Assembly (NCBI GenBank): GCA_905236585.1
Contig: CAJOQZ010000010.1
Location: forward strand, 1-28,452
DNA from: an uncultured Lachnospiraceae bacterium
GTDB lineage: Bacteria; Bacillota; Clostridia; Lachnospirales; Lachnospiraceae
Length of the DNA stretch: 28,452 bases
Direction of reading: 5' to 3'
Under the pieces are notes generated by a model, which was not told the origin of the DNA, made no database searches, and worked only from the letters and a program-made list of their open reading frames with translations. Both the position numbers and the translations under genes were made by a program. This document shows positions 6,690-20,983 of the stretch, one piece after another; positions within the stretch are counted from its first letter, which is position 1; each line of letters begins with the position of its first letter.

Positions 6690-7502
6690 TTACACTCTTG
6701 CACGGAAAATCGCCCCTCGTGACCGTCCCGCTTCCGCCGCTCTTTCTGCAGCAGCATACGGATTCATCCGCGGAACCCGCGCCTTCGCAGCGGCTTTTGT
6801 CACGCCCTCCGCCGTATCGGAAGGCGCCTTAACACGCGGCGCGGGCTCCGCCGTGGACTCCGCCGCCGGTGAACCGCTTATCGCCGATGTCTGCGCCGGT
6901 TCGCCCACCGAAAAATCCTGTCTGCCCGCACGCCTGCCGGAGCCCTTTGCTGATGCGCCTTCTGCTCCGTCGGTATTCGCCGCCGGACTCGGCTTGTCTT
7001 CCGGGTCGCCGTTCGTGCTTTCGATCTTCGAGCCGCCCTCTCCGTTCGGATAAGCGATCACGGTATGGGTCACGCCGCCCGATACATAGATCCGTCCGCA
7101 TTCCGGGCAGACCGACGTATGGATTGCGACGCCGACGGATAAAACTTTGCCTCCCGCTTCCGCCGCCTTGGAGTATGCGTTCGACACGTGCTCCTGCTCA
7201 TGGGCGCGTACTTTCGCCCCCGCCGCAGACGGGTCGACATGGGTCGCCGTCTGGAACGATACATCCGATTCGTCCGAGCCGTCTTTGTATTTGCGGTTCT
7301 TACAAGTCTCGCAGTCTTCGGGAGAGGATTTGCCGCCCGGCTTTTTCTTCTCGTCGACTTCGCCGGGCTTTTCCGCTTTCCCGACCTTGCCGACCGAAAA
7401 TGCGTCCTCACCGCCCTTGCCAAAGGAGAAACCGGCATCCGCTCTGCCGTCGGATGGCGCAGAAAACGGAACTGCATATTTATTATCCAGATTAAAATCC
7501 AT
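6690..7502 (-). CDS. Uncharacterised SprA-related-like protein with CxxC...HExxH...CxxC core and low-complexity ends
   Basis: CETC...VRAHEQEH...CPEC. Start set at MDFNL (7502) after GGAG. Confidence 0.65.
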   Translation of the reverse strand: MDFNLDNKYAVPFSAPSDGRADAGFSFGKGGEDAFSVGKVGKAEKPGEVDEKKKPGGKSSPEDCETCKNRKYKDGSDESDVSFQTATHVDPSAAGAKVRAHEQEHVSNAYSKAAEAGGKVLSVGVAIHTSVCPECGRIYVSGGVTHTVIAYPNGEGGSKIESTNGDPEDKPSPAANTDGAEGASAKGSGRRAGRQDFSVGEPAQTSAISGSPAAESTAEPAPRVKAPSDTAEGVTKAAAKARVPRMNPYAAAERAAEAGRSRGAIFRARV

Positions 7503-7548
7503 ATGCGGCATCTCCTTTCCTTAAAAATTTCGACAATTATACATATTT

Positions 7549-8006: not shown

Positions 8007-8024
8007 AAAGCCGTCTGCCCAGTT

Positions 8025-9065
8025 TTACTGCATTTCCTCCTGCCATTCGATCTCACCGATTTCCGCAACATCATATACCCGCTGCGGAATCCGCAGGATA
8101 AATTCCGTTCCGCTCCCAAGTTCGCTTTTTACCGCAACGGAGCCTTTCATCAAATCCAAAAGCCGCTTAACGATCGCCATGCCAAGCCCCGTTCCCTTAA
8201 ATCCCGCCTCGCGTCCATTCGGAGCGTTCCGATAAGAATCAAAAAGATGATCGACCGTCTCCCCCGATATGCCGCGCCCGGTATCTTTGACCGAAACCAC
8301 CAGCCCGATATCACCGGCAAACATCGGTTCCATTCCGACGGAAAGCGTCACTCCGCCCTCGTCGGTGTATTTTACCGCGTTCGATAAAATCGTAATCAAC
8401 ATCTGCTGGATGCGCGGTGCATCGCCGATCAGCATGGAGGGAATATGCGGATCGCTGTTGATCGTCATGGCGAGTCCCTTTTTTTTGATTTCCGGCATAA
8501 CCATATCGCGGCTCTCGGCGATCAGCTCCGCCAGGCGGTATGGCGACGAATGAATCTGCATGGTCTTGGAAATAATCATGGACAGATCGACCATTTCGTT
8601 GATTACCAGCGAGATGTCTTCATTTGCATCGATCATCTCCATGATCCGCGCCCTGACCTCCTCGTTTTCCTTCTCGCCTAAAATGATTGCGCTCTTGTCC
8701 GATATCGCATTGACCGGTCCCCATAACTGCCGCGCAACGTCGCTGATATTGGCGCTGCTGAAATCCTCCTGAATCGAAATATCCTCGACTATGATCTGTT
8801 TTTTGGAAATCTGAGCCGTAATCCCCCAGACAAATCCGCCAAATGCCGCAAAGCAGGAAAAAATTATCCAAGTCACCGGATTAGCAACGGCTTCCCTCAG
8901 ATACGCGCTGCCAATTACAACCTGCGTCTGCTCTGTGCCGTTTTCCCCCAACGCAAAGATGGAAAGAATCACGACAATCGCAACAACAATGCTGTAATTC
9001 AGCGCAATTCCACGATAGATCAGCGAATACTCGTCTGTTTTTTTGCTTCCCGCCCTTTTTTCCAT
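8025..9065 (-). CDS. Two-TM histidine-kinase-like protein: intact HATPase_c, H-box lacks His (pseudokinase candidate)
   Basis: N box LSNAVKYT, G1 DTGRG, G2 GTGLG intact. H-box region reads DVARQLWGP against canonical NMSHEIRTP. Start at MEKRAG (9065). Confidence 0.8.
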   Translation of the reverse strand: MEKRAGSKKTDEYSLIYRGIALNYSIVVAIVVILSIFALGENGTEQTQVVIGSAYLREAVANPVTWIIFSCFAAFGGFVWGITAQISKKQIIVEDISIQEDFSSANISDVARQLWGPVNAISDKSAIILGEKENEEVRARIMEMIDANEDISLVINEMVDLSMIISKTMQIHSSPYRLAELIAESRDMVMPEIKKKGLAMTINSDPHIPSMLIGDAPRIQQMLITILSNAVKYTDEGGVTLSVGMEPMFAGDIGLVVSVKDTGRGISGETVDHLFDSYRNAPNGREAGFKGTGLGMAIVKRLLDLMKGSVAVKSELGSGTEFILRIPQRVYDVAEIGEIEWQEEMQ

Positions 9066-9069
9066 TTTC

Positions 9070-10986
9070 TTATCTCGTTCCCCCGCTGTAAGACGCCGCA
9101 TCCACGACCTGCTGCGGTATTGTCACGACAATCGTCGTCCCGTGTTCGTTGGTTTCCTTGATCCGCACATTGCCTCCAAGCATCCGCGCCATCCCACCGA
9201 CAACGGACAATGACAATGTCGGCCCGTTACTATCCGCGTTCTGCTTCGTCATAACAAAGAGCCGGTTCGCGTTCACGTCTTTTGGGATTCCACCGCCGCT
9301 GTCCGCTACCGTGATCGTCAAATCTCCGCGCCGCACAAATCCCGCCGCCGAAAACGCAAGGCTGACATGAACCCCGCCCTCTTTTGTAAATCGAAACGAT
9401 GACGCGAGCAGGGAATTTATGATCCGTTTTATTTTCTCCACATCCCCTAAAAGCGCCTTCGGCACCATAGGATCGACGTCACATGAAAACTGAATATCTT
9501 TATTGGTGCGGTAGATCTCCGCCCGCCGCCCAATCGCCCGCACAAGGCTCTCCACCTCGTACGGAATATTCTGCGGGGATAACATTTTCGTTTCGAGTTT
9601 TACATAGTCGGCAATATCGTCAAGCATCGACAAAATCCTTGCCGCCTCGTCATGGATGTCATCCGCCGCTTTCCTTGTCCATTGGCTATTACAGATAGAC
9701 GCGATTGCCGCGCTTTGCGTCTGAACGATCTCTGTGGGGCGTTCAATCGCATTGGATACATTTTCCAGCAAGGCGTTGCGCATCCTCGACTGTGCCACAA
9801 CTGTCTGCCGCACCGTCATGTGGCGCAGATGCCGCTGCCGCACCCAGATAAAGCAGCACAACAAAAATGTCAGTACGCCGATGATGAAAAAGGTTCCATC
9901 CCCAAACTGCGGCAGAACGTAGTATACAAAAATCTCCGCCAGCCCGCACGCCGCCATGATCAGACTTGCCGCGACGATCCAGCGGATGTTGGCATATATT
10001 TCCTTTTCATGGAGTTTAAGGAGGATGATCGATACCAAGCCGCAGACCGTCGATATCGCAATCGCCGCGTGAATCACCCATATGATCATCAGCATATCGC
10101 ATCCCACCGCCGTCAGCAAAAGGTCTAAAAGCACCACGCCGAGATTCAATATGCTTACGATATCAAACGCCTTCCCGTACCGCCGCTGTTCGCAAATATC
10201 CATAAAACGCGCCATGGGAAACGGCACCATCGCCAGCATAAGCGTCTCAATCCATTGCAGCCACGCCGTGTTCCCGACAAAGATCTGCCCGGCATTCGTC
10301 TGCAGCACGAACCATGCTCCGACGCAGAACGACAACATTCCAAGATAATTATAGGGCAGCCGCAGTTCGCGGTCCGCCTGTGCAAAACTAATTCCGAACA
10401 GCATCATTCCGTAGAACAGGATCAGCATCCCGACCACCATTACGAACAGGGTGCCATGGAAGTTATGATACAGCACCGCCCTGGGACTTCCGATCAAAAT
10501 CTCGTTCAAAACGCCGATATAACGCTGCTCTTTGCTGGTATAGGTAACCGACAGGTCTTTTCCCGCATCCTGTTGTGAGATTGGAATAAAGCGGACGCCT
10601 TTTGACGGAAGATTCGTCTCGAAAAAACTGTCCGTCCCATTATAATGCTCACGCAAATCGCCGTCGATGTAGACGTAGGCTTCCTGATGATACGGATAAT
10701 ACGCCAAATATGTCTCGCCCGCATATACTTCCGGCAGTTTTGCCGTAACCGTCACGCTGCCGCCGCGCCTTACGCCAATCCGGTTCGGAAGGTGAATTTC
10801 CCCGCCTTGCATATCGGACGTTTCATAATGAATCGGATTCGGCAGCACTGTACAGCCGCCCCGCGATACATCAAAAAAAGCCGCCGCGATACAAAGCGAC
10901 ACGAAAAACATCAGTACCATGACAAAAGCAAGGTACAAATATAGGAGAACGCGACCCGGGCGCATTGTGCTTGCAAAATTCTTCAT
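9070..10986 (-). CDS. Multi-TM sensor (extracellular domain plus about 7 TM, 7TM-DISM-like) with degenerate histidine kinase domain
   Basis: H-box NVSNAIERP (His to Asn), N box LASSFRF, G2 GPTLSL degenerate, G1 DSGGG retained. Start uncertain (11052, 10986 or 10965). Confidence 0.75.
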   Translation of the reverse strand: MKNFASTMRPGRVLLYLYLAFVMVLMFFVSLCIAAAFFDVSRGGCTVLPNPIHYETSDMQGGEIHLPNRIGVRRGGSVTVTAKLPEVYAGETYLAYYPYHQEAYVYIDGDLREHYNGTDSFFETNLPSKGVRFIPISQQDAGKDLSVTYTSKEQRYIGVLNEILIGSPRAVLYHNFHGTLFVMVVGMLILFYGMMLFGISFAQADRELRLPYNYLGMLSFCVGAWFVLQTNAGQIFVGNTAWLQWIETLMLAMVPFPMARFMDICEQRRYGKAFDIVSILNLGVVLLDLLLTAVGCDMLMIIWVIHAAIAISTVCGLVSIILLKLHEKEIYANIRWIVAASLIMAACGLAEIFVYYVLPQFGDGTFFIIGVLTFLLCCFIWVRQRHLRHMTVRQTVVAQSRMRNALLENVSNAIERPTEIVQTQSAAIASICNSQWTRKAADDIHDEAARILSMLDDIADYVKLETKMLSPQNIPYEVESLVRAIGRRAEIYRTNKDIQFSCDVDPMVPKALLGDVEKIKRIINSLLASSFRFTKEGGVHVSLAFSAAGFVRRGDLTITVADSGGGIPKDVNANRLFVMTKQNADSNGPTLSLSVVGGMARMLGGNVRIKETNEHGTTIVVTIPQQVVDAASYSGGTR

Positions 10987-11167
10987 GCAAAACATTTTAC
11001 AATAACTTGTGCATTCCCGCAAGATGTGATATACTGAACAAATAAATCGCATTATACCGTATTATTATGATAATTTCATATTTTTTTGACCACTGATCAG
11101 GTTGAGACACGAGCATGTTCCACCGTCGTGTTTAGCATAAGCGAGAACAGCGAAAGGAGGGACGCAC

Positions 11168-11422
11168 ATGGCTCAAAAGAAATTAAGCGCCGAGGACATC
11201 CGCACGTTAATGAGCAATCCGCACGTTATGGATGCGAATGAAGCCCGCATTCTGTATACGCCGGAGTTCAAAAAGCATTTCATGGATGAATACCACGCGG
11301 GAAAAGGCCCGACGCAGATCTTTCGCGAGAGCGGCTTTGATCCCAAAATGCTTGGGGGCAAGCGAATTGAGCGTGCGACTGCCCGTTGGAAAATCGCTTA
11401 TGATAAGGGACGAATCTCTTGA
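11168..11422 (+). CDS. Small HTH protein resembling the N-terminus of Firmicute IS3/IS150-type OrfA
   Basis: NPHV...ILYTPEFK...PTQIFRESGFD...KRI..A..RW pattern; strong RBS AAAGGAGG; no transposase catalytic ORF follows. Confidence 0.65.
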   Translation: MAQKKLSAEDIRTLMSNPHVMDANEARILYTPEFKKHFMDEYHAGKGPTQIFRESGFDPKMLGGKRIERATARWKIAYDKGRIS

Positions 11423-18951: not shown

Positions 18952-19632
18952 ATGCGTATTTTATTAGCCGAAGACGAACGGGAAATGTCAAACGCGCTTG
19001 TCGCGATATTGAAAAACAGCCATTACAGCGTAGATGCCGTATATAACGGCGAGGATGCTTATGACTATCTCGACACCGGGCTGTATGACGCGGCGATCCT
19101 CGACATCATGATGCCGAAAATGGACGGCATCACCGTATTAAAGAAAATCCGCGCCGCCGGAAACGACGTTCCGATCCTGATGCTGACGGCAAAATCCGAG
19201 ATCGACGACAAAGTGACCGGACTCGATGCTGGAGCGGATGATTACCTGACGAAGCCCTTCGCCATGAAGGAACTGCTGGCACGTCTGCGTGCGATCAGCC
19301 GCCGCCAAGGCGAAGTCGCCGACATTGAACTTTCCTTTTCCAACATCCGGCTAAACTGCTCCACCTATACGCTATCGTCCGACGGCGGGAGCTTAAGGCT
19401 TGCCAACAAGGAATTTCAAATGCTGGAAATGCTTATGAAAAACCCGGGGCAGATCATCTCCCCGGATCAGTTCATGGACAAAATCTGGGGCTATGACAGC
19501 GACACGGAAAGCAACGTCGTATGGGTCTACATCTCCTATCTTCGCAAAAAATTGACGCAGGTCGACGCAAACGTCGCCATCCGCGCCGCCCGGGGAATCG
19601 GGTACCGTCTGGAGGAAAAGGCGAATGATTAA
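18952..19632 (+). CDS. OmpR/PhoB-family response regulator
   Basis: LAEDE, LDIMMP phospho-acceptor Asp, LTAK, KPF, winged-helix end RGIGY. Confidence 0.95.
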   Translation: MRILLAEDEREMSNALVAILKNSHYSVDAVYNGEDAYDYLDTGLYDAAILDIMMPKMDGITVLKKIRAAGNDVPILMLTAKSEIDDKVTGLDAGADDYLTKPFAMKELLARLRAISRRQGEVADIELSFSNIRLNCSTYTLSSDGGSLRLANKEFQMLEMLMKNPGQIISPDQFMDKIWGYDSDTESNVVWVYISYLRKKLTQVDANVAIRAARGIGYRLEEKAND

Positions 19633-20983
19633 AACGCTCCGTTACAAATTCATTGCCGTAACCATGCTTTCAGTCGTCCTCGTGCTGATCGTTCTGATGG
19701 GCGGAATCAACTTCGCCAATTACCGCAACGTCAGCCGCAATCTGGATCTGCGGCTGGATCTTCTCGAAGAAAGCGGCGGTGACCTTGCATCCCGCAGGAA
19801 CGAACGCATCCCGCGCAACGAGCAAAACGGCATAGAATCGGAAGCACAGACTCCCCCCGAAAAACCTTCCCCGGACAGTGAGCCTCCTGCTTTCGATAAG
19901 CCGCCGACTTCCCGCAATGATAATCCGTTCGCTTTCCGTAACGAACTGTCCGTGGAGTCTCTTTTTGATACGCGCTACTTTACGGTTTCCGTCGCCAAAG
20001 ACGGCAGCATTTCCTCGGTCAACGCCGACAACATTGCCACCGCGTCCGAAGCGCAGGCAGCCGACCTCGCCCTCGCATTGTATGAAAAAGGCCGCACATC
20101 CGGCTACATCAAAGAATATAAATTCCGAGCGGTTCCCACCGTGTGCGAAGACGGCACCGCCGTTACCATGTACATCTTTTTGAATGCGTCACGAGAACTT
20201 AATTCATTCTATAATTTTTTACAAATATCCTTATTCGTCAGTATCCTCGGAACCGTGCTGATCTTCCTTCTCGTTTTTATCCTGTCAAAAATCGTCATCC
20301 GCCCGGTTGCGGAAAGTTACGAAAAACAAAAGCGTTTCATCACGGATGCCAGCCACGAGATCAAGACGCCGCTTGCCATCATTGAGGCAAATACCGAGGT
20401 GGTCGAAATGGAAGCCGGGGAAAGCGAGTGGACAAAAAGCATCCGCCACCAGATCGCCCGCTTGTCTTCGCTGACGGAAAAACTCGTCTTCCTTTCCCGC
20501 ATGGACGAAGAAGGCACATCCCTTACCGTCACGAAATTCAACCTTTCCGATGCCGTATCCGATACGGCGGAAGGCTTTATGGGCGTCGCGCTTTCTTCGG
20601 GCAAACGGCTGTCCCTATCCATCACGCCGCGCCTTTCCTATTCCGGCGACAAGGCAATGCTTACGCAGCTTATTTCCCTGCTATTGGACAACGCCTTAAA
20701 ATACGCCGCCCCGGAGAGTGAAATCCGGCTGGTTTTAGAGCCGTACCGCAAAGGAAAGCGTACGGTGCGTCTGATACAGGAAAATGCGGTGGAAGAAATA
20801 GAAAAAGGAAACTTGGATGTTCTGTTCGAACGGTTCTACCGGAGCGATCCGTCCCGCAATTCAAGAACCGGCGGGCACGGAATCGGGCTGTCCGTCGCGG
20901 CGGCGATCGTCCGCGCCCACGGCGGCTCGATCCACGCAAAAAGCGACGACGGAAAATCCATCCGTTTCACGATTCACTTATAA
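19625..20983 (+). CDS. Class I sensor histidine kinase (intact)
   Basis: Two TM helices, H-box DASHEIKTPL, N box LDNALKY, FERFYR, GHGIGL; overlaps the response regulator stop. Confidence 0.95.
   Translation: MIKTLRYKFIAVTMLSVVLVLIVLMGGINFANYRNVSRNLDLRLDLLEESGGDLASRRNERIPRNEQNGIESEAQTPPEKPSPDSEPPAFDKPPTSRNDNPFAFRNELSVESLFDTRYFTVSVAKDGSISSVNADNIATASEAQAADLALALYEKGRTSGYIKEYKFRAVPTVCEDGTAVTMYIFLNASRELNSFYNFLQISLFVSILGTVLIFLLVFILSKIVIRPVAESYEKQKRFITDASHEIKTPLAIIEANTEVVEMEAGESEWTKSIRHQIARLSSLTEKLVFLSRMDEEGTSLTVTKFNLSDAVSDTAEGFMGVALSSGKRLSLSITPRLSYSGDKAMLTQLISLLLDNALKYAAPESEIRLVLEPYRKGKRTVRLIQENAVEEIEKGNLDVLFERFYRSDPSRNSRTGGHGIGLSVAAAIVRAHGGSIHAKSDDGKSIRFTIHL

Follow-up and report, generated by a model that had tools for sequence, protein, structure and literature searches.

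A tandem pair of histidine kinase homologues with a replaced phosphorylation site and complementary degeneration in uncultured Lachnospiraceae

Background

In NifL, the subfamily-2 ethylene receptors of plants and the phytochromes, a GHKL (histidine-kinase/Hsp90-type ATPase) domain is retained that serves to bind nucleotide or to form heteromers, without phosphorylation of a histidine. Kinases of the intramembrane-sensing BceS/LiaS type keep their histidine, have a cognate response regulator and are partnered by ABC transporters or by LiaF. Closest to the subject of this paper are RetS, which cannot bind ATP and works through a heteromer with the kinase GacS that is formed between their dimerisation and histidine-phosphotransfer (DHp) domains (PMC8498467), and the phosphorylation-independent kinase look-alikes DivL of Caulobacter (PMC4211667) and PsmA of Streptomyces (PMC12963549). 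Single histidine pseudokinases of the DivL and PsmA kind and ATP-blind modulators such as RetS are known, and how frequent they are and which parts they retain is poorly charted outside model Proteobacteria and Actinobacteria. Here we analyse two adjacent genes, called LARGE and SMALL, in a stretch of 28,452 nucleotides from an uncultured Lachnospiraceae bacterium (contig CAJOQZ010000010.1 of assembly GCA_905236585.1; this whole stretch is referred to as the window), both of which encode histidine kinase homologues with another residue in place of the phosphorylated histidine.

A preliminary description of the window, made from the sequence without database searches, had proposed the pair as an undescribed two-subunit module, to be checked by the conservation of the gene pair and of the histidine loss, by dN/dS and by modelling of the complex, and had named another histidine, such as that of the sequence DDIHDE, as a site whose normal phosphorylation would speak against it. 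In this paper we follow the two genes through their relatives, and we put at roughly 55% the probability that LARGE and SMALL form a co-transcribed, selectively kept receptor-transducer heteromer of pseudokinases that operates without a His-Asp phosphorelay. We favour this reading because selection preserves the sensor of LARGE and the nucleotide site and DHp domain of SMALL.

Results

Replacement of the phosphorylated histidine

Both genes lie on the minus strand, as do all of their features given below. The open reading frames (ORFs) as called span 9070..11052 for LARGE and 8025..9101 for SMALL; with the starts adopted here, LARGE occupies 9070..10995 (first in-frame ATG at 11052) and SMALL 8025..9065. 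LARGE encodes a receptor-like histidine pseudokinase made up of an anchor helix, a jelly-roll ectodomain, seven transmembrane (TM) helices, a DHp domain without the histidine and a vestigial ATP-binding catalytic (CA) domain. SMALL encodes a histidine pseudokinase of the intramembrane-sensing type, with two TM helices and an intact ATP-binding CA domain.

When the two proteins were compared with solved kinases by phmmer, v-a-R-q-l-w-g-P of SMALL was aligned to m-s-H-e-i-r-t-P and v-s-N-a-i-e-r-P of LARGE to i-s-H-e-i-r-t-P. Alignment by hmmalign likewise places Arg112 of SMALL (codon 8730-8732) and Asn434 of LARGE (codon 9751..9753) at the column of the phosphorylated histidine, in agreement with the replacements by Arg and Asn that had been read at these codons in the preliminary description. 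Neither protein has a HisKA match in Pfam at E<=0.1. Among 104 kinase ORFs from the 80 nearest loci of other genomes the same column holds His in 96 and Gln in 2, while 4 are cut by a contig end; because 96 of these 104 retain it, the loss of the His is a trait of the LARGE/SMALL family and not of its background.

The loss is shared by nearly all orthologues. In SMALL the column reads R, R, R, R, K, R and K, so that His is absent from all seven complete members; in L183 and L191 the H-box of the SMALL partner lies beyond the contig ends. The H-box of the window, VARQLWGPVNAI (8703..8738), with Arg112 in place of His, falls like all others within [AV]-[RK]-x-L-W-x-P-[IV]-N, in which the new Trp is invariant, and neither the acid after the His nor the T/N phosphatase position is conserved. 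The box has been remodelled to a new conserved motif, not randomised. The LARGE members have N, N, N, M, A, G and G in the column, and H in P0159, that is, seven of eight are without His. Their H-box falls within N-[IV]-[ST]-x-A-[ILV]-x-x-P, with Ala directly after the His column in every member, and the T/N phosphatase position is again not conserved. In a tree of LARGE rooted on outgroups that bear the His, P0159 is sister to an Asn-bearing member. Such a tree needs several losses or one reversion, and the site is unconstrained in LARGE either way.

A different histidine of LARGE, His408 next to the membrane (9829..9831), is invariant in the alignment of all eight members, 26 residues before the canonical column, and has no counterpart in the outgroup kinases. 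It is probably structural, and a role as alternative acceptor seems unlikely. The histidine of DDIHDE was rejected as an alternative acceptor; it is not conserved, being replaced by Arg in L001 and by Asn in P0123.

As a separate observation, two Lachnospiraceae kinases of ~510 aa, in L031 (ORF from 5272) and L033 (ORF from 5284), have Gln at the column (THITQEVRTP). They are unrelated to the LARGE/SMALL family and are further kinase homologues without the His.

Complementary decay and the ATP-binding domains

HATPase_c is the sole Pfam match in either protein (E 2e-12 in LARGE and 1e-23 in SMALL). Matches in NCBIfam to the hybrid kinases TorS, ArcB, LuxQ, BarA and RcsC are partial, covering the DHp-CA part only, and fall far under the family cut-offs. 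The ATP boxes of SMALL (8169..8390) keep the N-box Asn (8364-8390), the D-x-G-x-G of G1 (8268-8288), the F box and the G-T-G-L-G of G2 (8169-8195), all of which are invariant in the family and the same in bona fide kinases, hybrid kinases among them. In LARGE the Asn that would bind Mg-ATP is replaced by Ser in the window (LLASSFRFT, 9385..9411) and reads S, S, T, G or L across the family. The aligned G2 box, or ATP lid, of LARGE (NGPTLSLSVV, 9199..9228) has become G-P-x-L-[ST]-L, and G1 survives, as DSGGG in the window. These comparisons agree with the degenerate N and G2 boxes of the larger protein and the intact N, G1 and G2 boxes of the smaller that had been described. The complementary decay is stronger than was described then: in P0124 and P0125 LARGE stops after DHp helix 1, and because SMALL begins only 14 nt past the stop, the CA domain and DHp helix 2 of these two lineages are truly deleted.

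LARGE and SMALL both end right after the CA domain with IPQxV. There is no receiver domain (REC) in either protein and no REC gene in the operon (window, L001-L004, L183 and L192), and no REC or histidine-phosphotransfer (HPt) gene occurs in any of the LARGE/SMALL loci. The sole receiver in the window belongs to a self-contained OmpR-type regulator and kinase at 18952-20983, 8 kb away, and the lack of a cognate regulator nearby that had been remarked on is thus upheld. Judged from these residues and domains, canonical autophosphorylation, phosphotransfer and HisKA-type phosphatase chemistry should be unavailable to LARGE or SMALL, and both proteins would come under the operational definition of histidine pseudokinases.

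Distribution and selection

A search of 5.8 billion proteins returned six orthologues of SMALL, 339-403 aa long, 43-57% identical and with HATPase_c only; past these six the identity falls to ~35%, the level of ordinary hybrid kinases. The search with LARGE gave four orthologues on the same contigs as the SMALL orthologues. L001 has a fifth ahead of P0004, truncated where the contig ends, and a search with a profile of the sensor added P0159 (39% identical over its full length; L183) and P0161 (L191). The pair is present in eight other metagenomic loci of a narrow clade of Lachnospiraceae (LARGE 37-52% and SMALL 43-57% identical), the named pair loci being the window, L001-L004, L183, L191 and L192, and the source samples appear to be animal gut or rumen. 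The two genes share their orientation in every locus, with 4-34 nt between them or an overlap, and neither gene was found without the other. The best full-length match in a wider scan, L089, was rejected as an orthologue, being a normal hybrid kinase of 862 aa, and the same-genus genome G221 was rejected as an empty-site comparison, its Tex neighbourhood (a resistance-nodulation-division efflux operon) being unrelated.

Compared with L001-L004, dN was 0.42-0.81 for LARGE and 0.36-0.58 for SMALL, as against 0.11-0.14 for Tex and 0.05-0.12 for the neighbouring gene of the helix-turn-helix (HTH) family HTH_Tnp_2. In distant pairs dS is saturated (1.3-3.2), and their apparent dN/dS of 0.17-0.38 was used only as a bound. 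In the closest pair, L003 and L192 (75-77% identical, dS ~1.0-1.3), dN/dS is 0.13 for LARGE and 0.15 for SMALL, with 0.07 in the DHp and 0.12 in the CA domain of SMALL. Both genes therefore evolve fast yet are clearly under purifying selection, which together with the invariant motifs agrees with the earlier argument that such long frames are not simple pseudogenes. Comparisons of dN show no acceleration of the window lineage, where the amidase behind SMALL is missing, over its sister L004.

Conservation is distributed unevenly along the two proteins. The CA domain of SMALL has a mean pairwise identity of 59% and its DHp helix 2 one of 54%, compared with 25% for the TM region. For LARGE the values are 52% (ectodomain), 44% (the seven TM helices), 37% (CA domain) and 32% (DHp helix 2). 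The region-wise conservation of the pair is complementary, the sensor being conserved in one protein and the ATP site and DHp in the other.

In L191 the LARGE gene is split (3-224 and 212-1672) between ectodomain and TM region, and the otherwise invariant motif YYPYHQ reads YCPNHQ. Either this copy is decaying or the contig contains a (low-coverage) assembly error.

Architecture and predicted complex

In the AlphaFold2 model of LARGE (pLDDT 77) an anchor helix at the N-terminus is followed by a beta ectodomain (residues 38-159), seven helices (161 to ~380), one continuous helix that leads into the DHp domain, and a CA fold. Hydropathy gives SMALL two hydrophobic helices, at ~20-40 and 63-86, separated by a loop of ~23 aa, and no sensor domain, with the same layout in its orthologues; the extracellular domain and approximately seven TM helices seen earlier in the larger protein, and the two in the smaller, are in keeping with both. 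Foldseek searches of the PDB with LARGE are led by the kinase cores of GacS, RetS and DivL. For the kernel of LARGE the RetS kinase region is the best sequence match and the best fold match after GacS (7z8n), and clusters of the AlphaFold DB give full-length matches of LARGE to kinases with seven TM helices. The ectodomain modelled alone (pLDDT 85) has as its best PDB match the periplasmic domain of RetS (3JYB, E 2e-4, TM-score 0.47), followed by the sugar-binding jelly-rolls of GH2 glucuronidases (TM-score ~0.6). It has no match to Pfam PF07696 (DISMED2-type), and PF07695 (7TMR-DISM_7TM) has no match on LARGE and scores 22-27 bits, under its cut-off of 29, on homologues of the sensor.

From the exit of the membrane to the His column there are ~25 residues in SMALL and ~30 in LARGE, and because these distances are alike, a canonical DHp register would be geometrically possible for a membrane-anchored heteromer. 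Prediction of a complex of LARGE 160-631 with full-length SMALL gave an ipSAE of 0.49, compared with 0.00 for the best control. Of 80 solved complexes 58 reach the mark of this score, as do 2 of 110 mismatched pairs, but at <=0.60 it is reached by only 7 of the 80 and by both mismatches. The confident contacts are between DHp helices 1 and 2 of LARGE and DHp helices 1 and 2 of SMALL, together with the G2 loop of SMALL. The predicted interface is that of canonical kinase dimers and of RetS-GacS, which indicates likeness and not specificity.

Relatives with the same sensor

The sensor profile has 2057 relatives. Those closest to the family, without belonging to it, are hybrid kinases (~780 aa) that carry HisKA, HATPase_c and REC; HD and GGDEF outputs are also found joined to the same sensor. 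In three outgroup members, P0160, P0162 and P0163, the sensor match has E values of 1e-77 to 1e-48, and in all three outgroup loci examined a second hybrid kinase directly follows the sensor kinase (493 aa in one; 953 or 599 aa in another; 895 aa, with HPt, in the third), with a LytTR regulator thereafter in one of them. P0160 (784 aa) has its H-box and REC intact and has lost the N, G1 and G2 boxes, its HATPase_c match of 22 bits being under the cut-off, and its 493-aa neighbour is a complete hybrid kinase whose N-terminal segment before the H-box is of SMALL-like length. Since relatives with the same sensor are hybrid kinases followed by a second hybrid kinase, the pair of the window is best seen, from its sequence relationships, as a reduced form of a tandem two-kinase module, descended by degeneration from tandem hybrid kinases. 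A recent tandem duplication was ruled out, LARGE and SMALL being 22% identical and SMALL nearer to other hybrid kinases (~36%).

In L184 (1818-5616; also in L185 and L186) P0160 overlaps the 493-aa kinase by 38 nt. The arrangement resembles a naturally occurring split kinase, or a tandem of the RetS/GacS type in Firmicutes.

Gene boundaries, neighbouring genes and control region

The junction of the two genes reads TAA-gaaa-ATG. With the ATG at 9065, which agrees with the N-termini of all orthologues, SMALL starts 4 nt past the LARGE stop, and the two co-oriented genes 4 nt apart that had been noted are found in the ORFs. The start of the larger gene, formerly placed at 11052, has to be moved: because the LARGE orthologues open with M-x-x-M-[KN] and a conserved non-coding block lies upstream of 10995, translation probably starts at 10995 or 10986.

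A secreted Amidase_3 protein with a signal peptide (346-357 aa) is encoded 1-93 nt after SMALL in all four other loci with downstream sequence (L001 2235-3299; L002 9086-10159; L003 8508-9548; L004 4433-4714), and its C-terminal domain of ~130 aa has no Pfam match. In the window the amidase is cleanly absent from this place, where only 18 nt (8007-8024) lie between the SMALL stop and a convergent DUF2752 gene. Elsewhere in the genome, a metagenome-assembled genome that is 80% complete, only a weak partial match to a different amidase was found.

On the other side, an HTH_Tnp_2 gene of 84 aa (window 11168..11422, plus strand, divergent from LARGE) adjoins LARGE in all five loci with upstream sequence. 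In three of these it is divergent; in the other two it runs in the direction of LARGE, at distances of 72 nt and 3 nt. The genes beyond it vary between loci (ArsR, Asn synthase, HMA, NrdG). This genome has one copy of the HTH gene, and the copies of different loci are 82-89% identical. The 400 other genera of the family that were searched hold only longer forms of insertion sequence (IS)-like appearance, 42-57% identical, and because the close form was not found among them, the HTH gene shares the narrow distribution of the pair; elsewhere HTH_Tnp_2 is sporadic (13 of 200 genera), mostly as IS-like forms of 145 aa at contig ends. The HTH protein may be a partner or output of the pair.

The region between the divergent genes (10996..11167, assigned to neither strand) contains the leader of the HTH gene and a promoter-like block just upstream of the LARGE start. 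The leader, of ~70 nt (window ~11095-11167, plus strand; L002 5672-5760; L003 5791-5868, minus strand; L004 1278-1353, minus strand; L183 780-866), is conserved as DNA in all five loci though the synonymous sites of the neighbouring genes are saturated. In the RNAalifold model its invariant GUUCCxCC pairs with the ribosome-binding site GGAGGGAC, and the fold could sequester that site; all pairs are invariant and there is no covariation. A search of Rfam with the control region gave no credible match. The promoter-like block, TTGCGG-17 nt-TAAAAT (window 10996-11052, minus strand), lies before or overlaps the first conserved ATGs of LARGE and is kept in the window, L003 and L004. Transcription from it would begin on or close to the second ATG (10986), and LARGE may therefore have a leaderless mRNA.

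Farther along, between DUF2752 and Tex, the window encodes at 6690-7511 (minus strand) a protein of 273 aa that has no Pfam match and contains CxxC ... HEQEH ... CxxC. It is 61-68% identical to proteins in L001 and L002 and may be metal-binding or metalloprotease-like.

Discussion

We propose that LARGE is the sensor of the pair, with a RetS-like ectodomain of carbohydrate-binding type and a bundle of seven TM helices, and that its kinase core would be only a structural remnant. SMALL would contribute a two-helix membrane anchor, a complete ATP-binding CA domain and Arg or Lys at the site of the phosphorylated histidine. The conformational state of LARGE might be passed to SMALL through a canonical DHp-DHp four-helix contact in the manner of RetS and GacS, and the nucleotide-loaded CA/DHp unit of SMALL might then offer a switch surface to which a downstream protein is bound or from which it is released. 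The Arg or Lys at the His column, by its conserved positive charge, could keep the nucleotide of the CA domain in place against the DHp domain. As the downstream protein we would consider, in order of preference, the 84-aa HTH protein, another hybrid kinase of the cell and the secreted Amidase_3 that is co-operonic in relatives. The physical association of the pair, its dependence on ATP and its output are all conjectural in this scheme.

Several observations weigh against this reading. The family is very small and limited to one narrow clade of uncultured Lachnospiraceae: a search of 400 other genera of the same family, among them the same-genus genome G221, gave no SMALL orthologue (E<=1e-50), and scans of the GTDB representatives and JGI metagenomes gave only ordinary kinases at 26-38% identity. 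The pair loci come from close kin, and their adjacency is not independent evidence. The pair sequence was found in three DNA metagenome runs only and in no RNA run. P0159, a LARGE orthologue, retains the His, and its SMALL partner is readable only to residue 68. The TM region is the least conserved part of SMALL, and the complex prediction has no confident TM contacts. That prediction, one of the checks proposed for the pair, does model a DHp-DHp contact, but its score is weak and its interface generic, and any two HisKA-type DHp domains might model alike. Finally, the tree of DHp-CA sequences, which is poorly resolved, does not place SMALL as sister to the partner kinases of the outgroup, and co-inheritance of the tandem from its ancestor is therefore left without support.

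The main alternative, though doubtful, is that phosphate is still moved, to a non-canonical or third-party acceptor, for which His408 of LARGE, His207 of SMALL (in a DPHIP motif), a Ser, Thr or Tyr residue, the 84-aa HTH protein and the His of a hybrid kinase in a heterodimer are candidates. Every ATP-binding residue of SMALL is invariant, which is more than a pure scaffold needs, and such chemistry would also give a place to the family-specific invariant histidine at the membrane boundary of LARGE and to the canonical His of P0159. The outgroup kinase P0160, with a dead CA domain but an intact His and REC, implies phosphorylation in trans by its partner kinase, and GacS subunits without the His and without the ATP site complement each other in trans (PMC8498467). 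However, His408 would lie some seven helical turns off the column, at the membrane surface and beyond the docked CA domain; the catalytic acid after the His is replaced in both proteins (by Ala in LARGE, variably in SMALL), the T/N phosphatase position has lapsed, and neither a receiver nor an HPt protein is encoded in any locus.

It is unlikely that the two proteins are neighbours by descent only and act independently, each for example titrating a different bona fide kinase as RetS does GacS. In its favour, the genome has at least 28 further genes for kinase-like proteins, large hybrids in many cases, the low identity of SMALL and LARGE (22%) shows that they are not recent duplicates, TM contacts were not predicted, and the LARGE proteins of P0124 and P0125, which have neither DHp helix 2 nor CA, would be unable to build the canonical four-helix bundle with SMALL. 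Independent action fits poorly with the short gaps of 4-34 nt in all nine loci, which suggest coupled expression, with the complementary conservation of domains and with the failure to find either gene alone.

We consider it speculative, and improbable in its full form, that HTH, LARGE and SMALL are a three-gene cassette amounting to a phosphorylation-free analogue of a two-component system, with the HTH protein in place of the response regulator: the pseudokinase heteromer, depending on ATP and signal, would hold a domesticated transposase-type HTH protein at the membrane or release it by partner switching, and the HTH protein would control the operon, including the amidase of relatives. That both genes are decaying remnants with no role is very improbable, for the roughly fourfold faster non-synonymous evolution than in neighbouring housekeeping genes (dN 0.36-0.81 vs 0.11-0.14 in Tex), the interrupted LARGE of L191, the amidase lost from the window and the very narrow distribution, which would all suit it, are set against frames of 340-650 codons intact in eight or nine lineages at dS >1, a dN/dS of 0.13-0.15, the invariance of the ATP boxes and of new family-specific motifs, and a window lineage that is not accelerated compared with L004 despite the loss of the amidase.

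If LARGE and SMALL bind each other as the receptor-transducer reading has it, they would offer a compact system in which to study the role of a kinase ATP domain that has nothing to phosphorylate, and the evolution of multikinase networks into phosphorylation-independent switches. The practical reach is limited to a tiny family of uncultured Lachnospiraceae.

Comparison with known systems

We found no published account of a conserved tandem in which two His-less kinase homologues have degenerated in a complementary way. To that extent the pair is undescribed, as had been proposed, but it is a degenerate form of tandem hybrid kinases that resembles RetS, DivL and PsmA, and its ingredients are all known individually.

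RetS of Pseudomonas aeruginosa, a 7TMR-DISM hybrid sensor that inhibits GacS, shares with LARGE as modelled the jelly-roll ectodomain, the seven TM helices and a DHp-CA core whose CA domain is without ATP-binding motifs. RetS acts by a DHp-DHp heteromer with a second kinase, a contact that is only predicted for LARGE. RetS differs in having the His and two receiver domains and in siphoning phosphate as well, and its partner GacS is a complete kinase encoded elsewhere, whereas here both proteins are encoded in tandem and are without His and REC. Identity between RetS and LARGE is only ~21%, and LARGE, having no Pfam 7TMR-DISM match, is not a member of that class by sequence; the variety of outputs joined to its sensor (kinase, HD, GGDEF) is what the name of the 7TMR-DISM class implies.

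With DivL and PsmA the pair has in common a kinase fold without the phosphorylated histidine. Theirs act by protein binding, as LARGE and SMALL are proposed to do. PsmA resembles LARGE further in its variable His column and in the loss of the ATP motifs and of the E/DxxT/N phosphatase motif. Unlike LARGE and SMALL, they are single cytoplasmic or polar proteins, neither of them paired with an ATP-competent partner that lacks the His; DivL has a conserved Tyr and reads a phosphorylated receiver, and PsmA keeps a receiver-like part.

Intramembrane-sensing kinases of the BceS/LiaS type share with SMALL two TM helices, a loop of ~23 residues and the lack of a sensor domain, and BceS is among the PDB matches of SMALL. 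By analogy, since SMALL has no sensor domain of its own, it would have to take its input from a membrane partner. The partner in the BceS/LiaS type is not another kinase-like protein, and it is in the pair that the His and the regulator are missing. NifL, the ethylene receptors and the phytochromes differ from the pair in belonging to unrelated lineages, in their domain contexts and in having known targets (NifA, CTR1).

Nearest of all are the tandem hybrid-kinase operons of P0160, P0162 and P0163, uncharacterised, which share with the pair the sensor of ectodomain and seven TM helices and a second kinase gene directly downstream, and in P0160 the dead CA domain, but retain the His, the REC and, in places, HPt and a LytTR regulator. 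The relatives sample different states: intact tandem hybrid kinases, a sensor kinase whose CA domain is dead, and the loss of both His and REC. Next to them the pair of the window represents a natural dissection of a kinase, in which one subunit keeps only the sensor and the other only the ATP site and a re-invented H-box.

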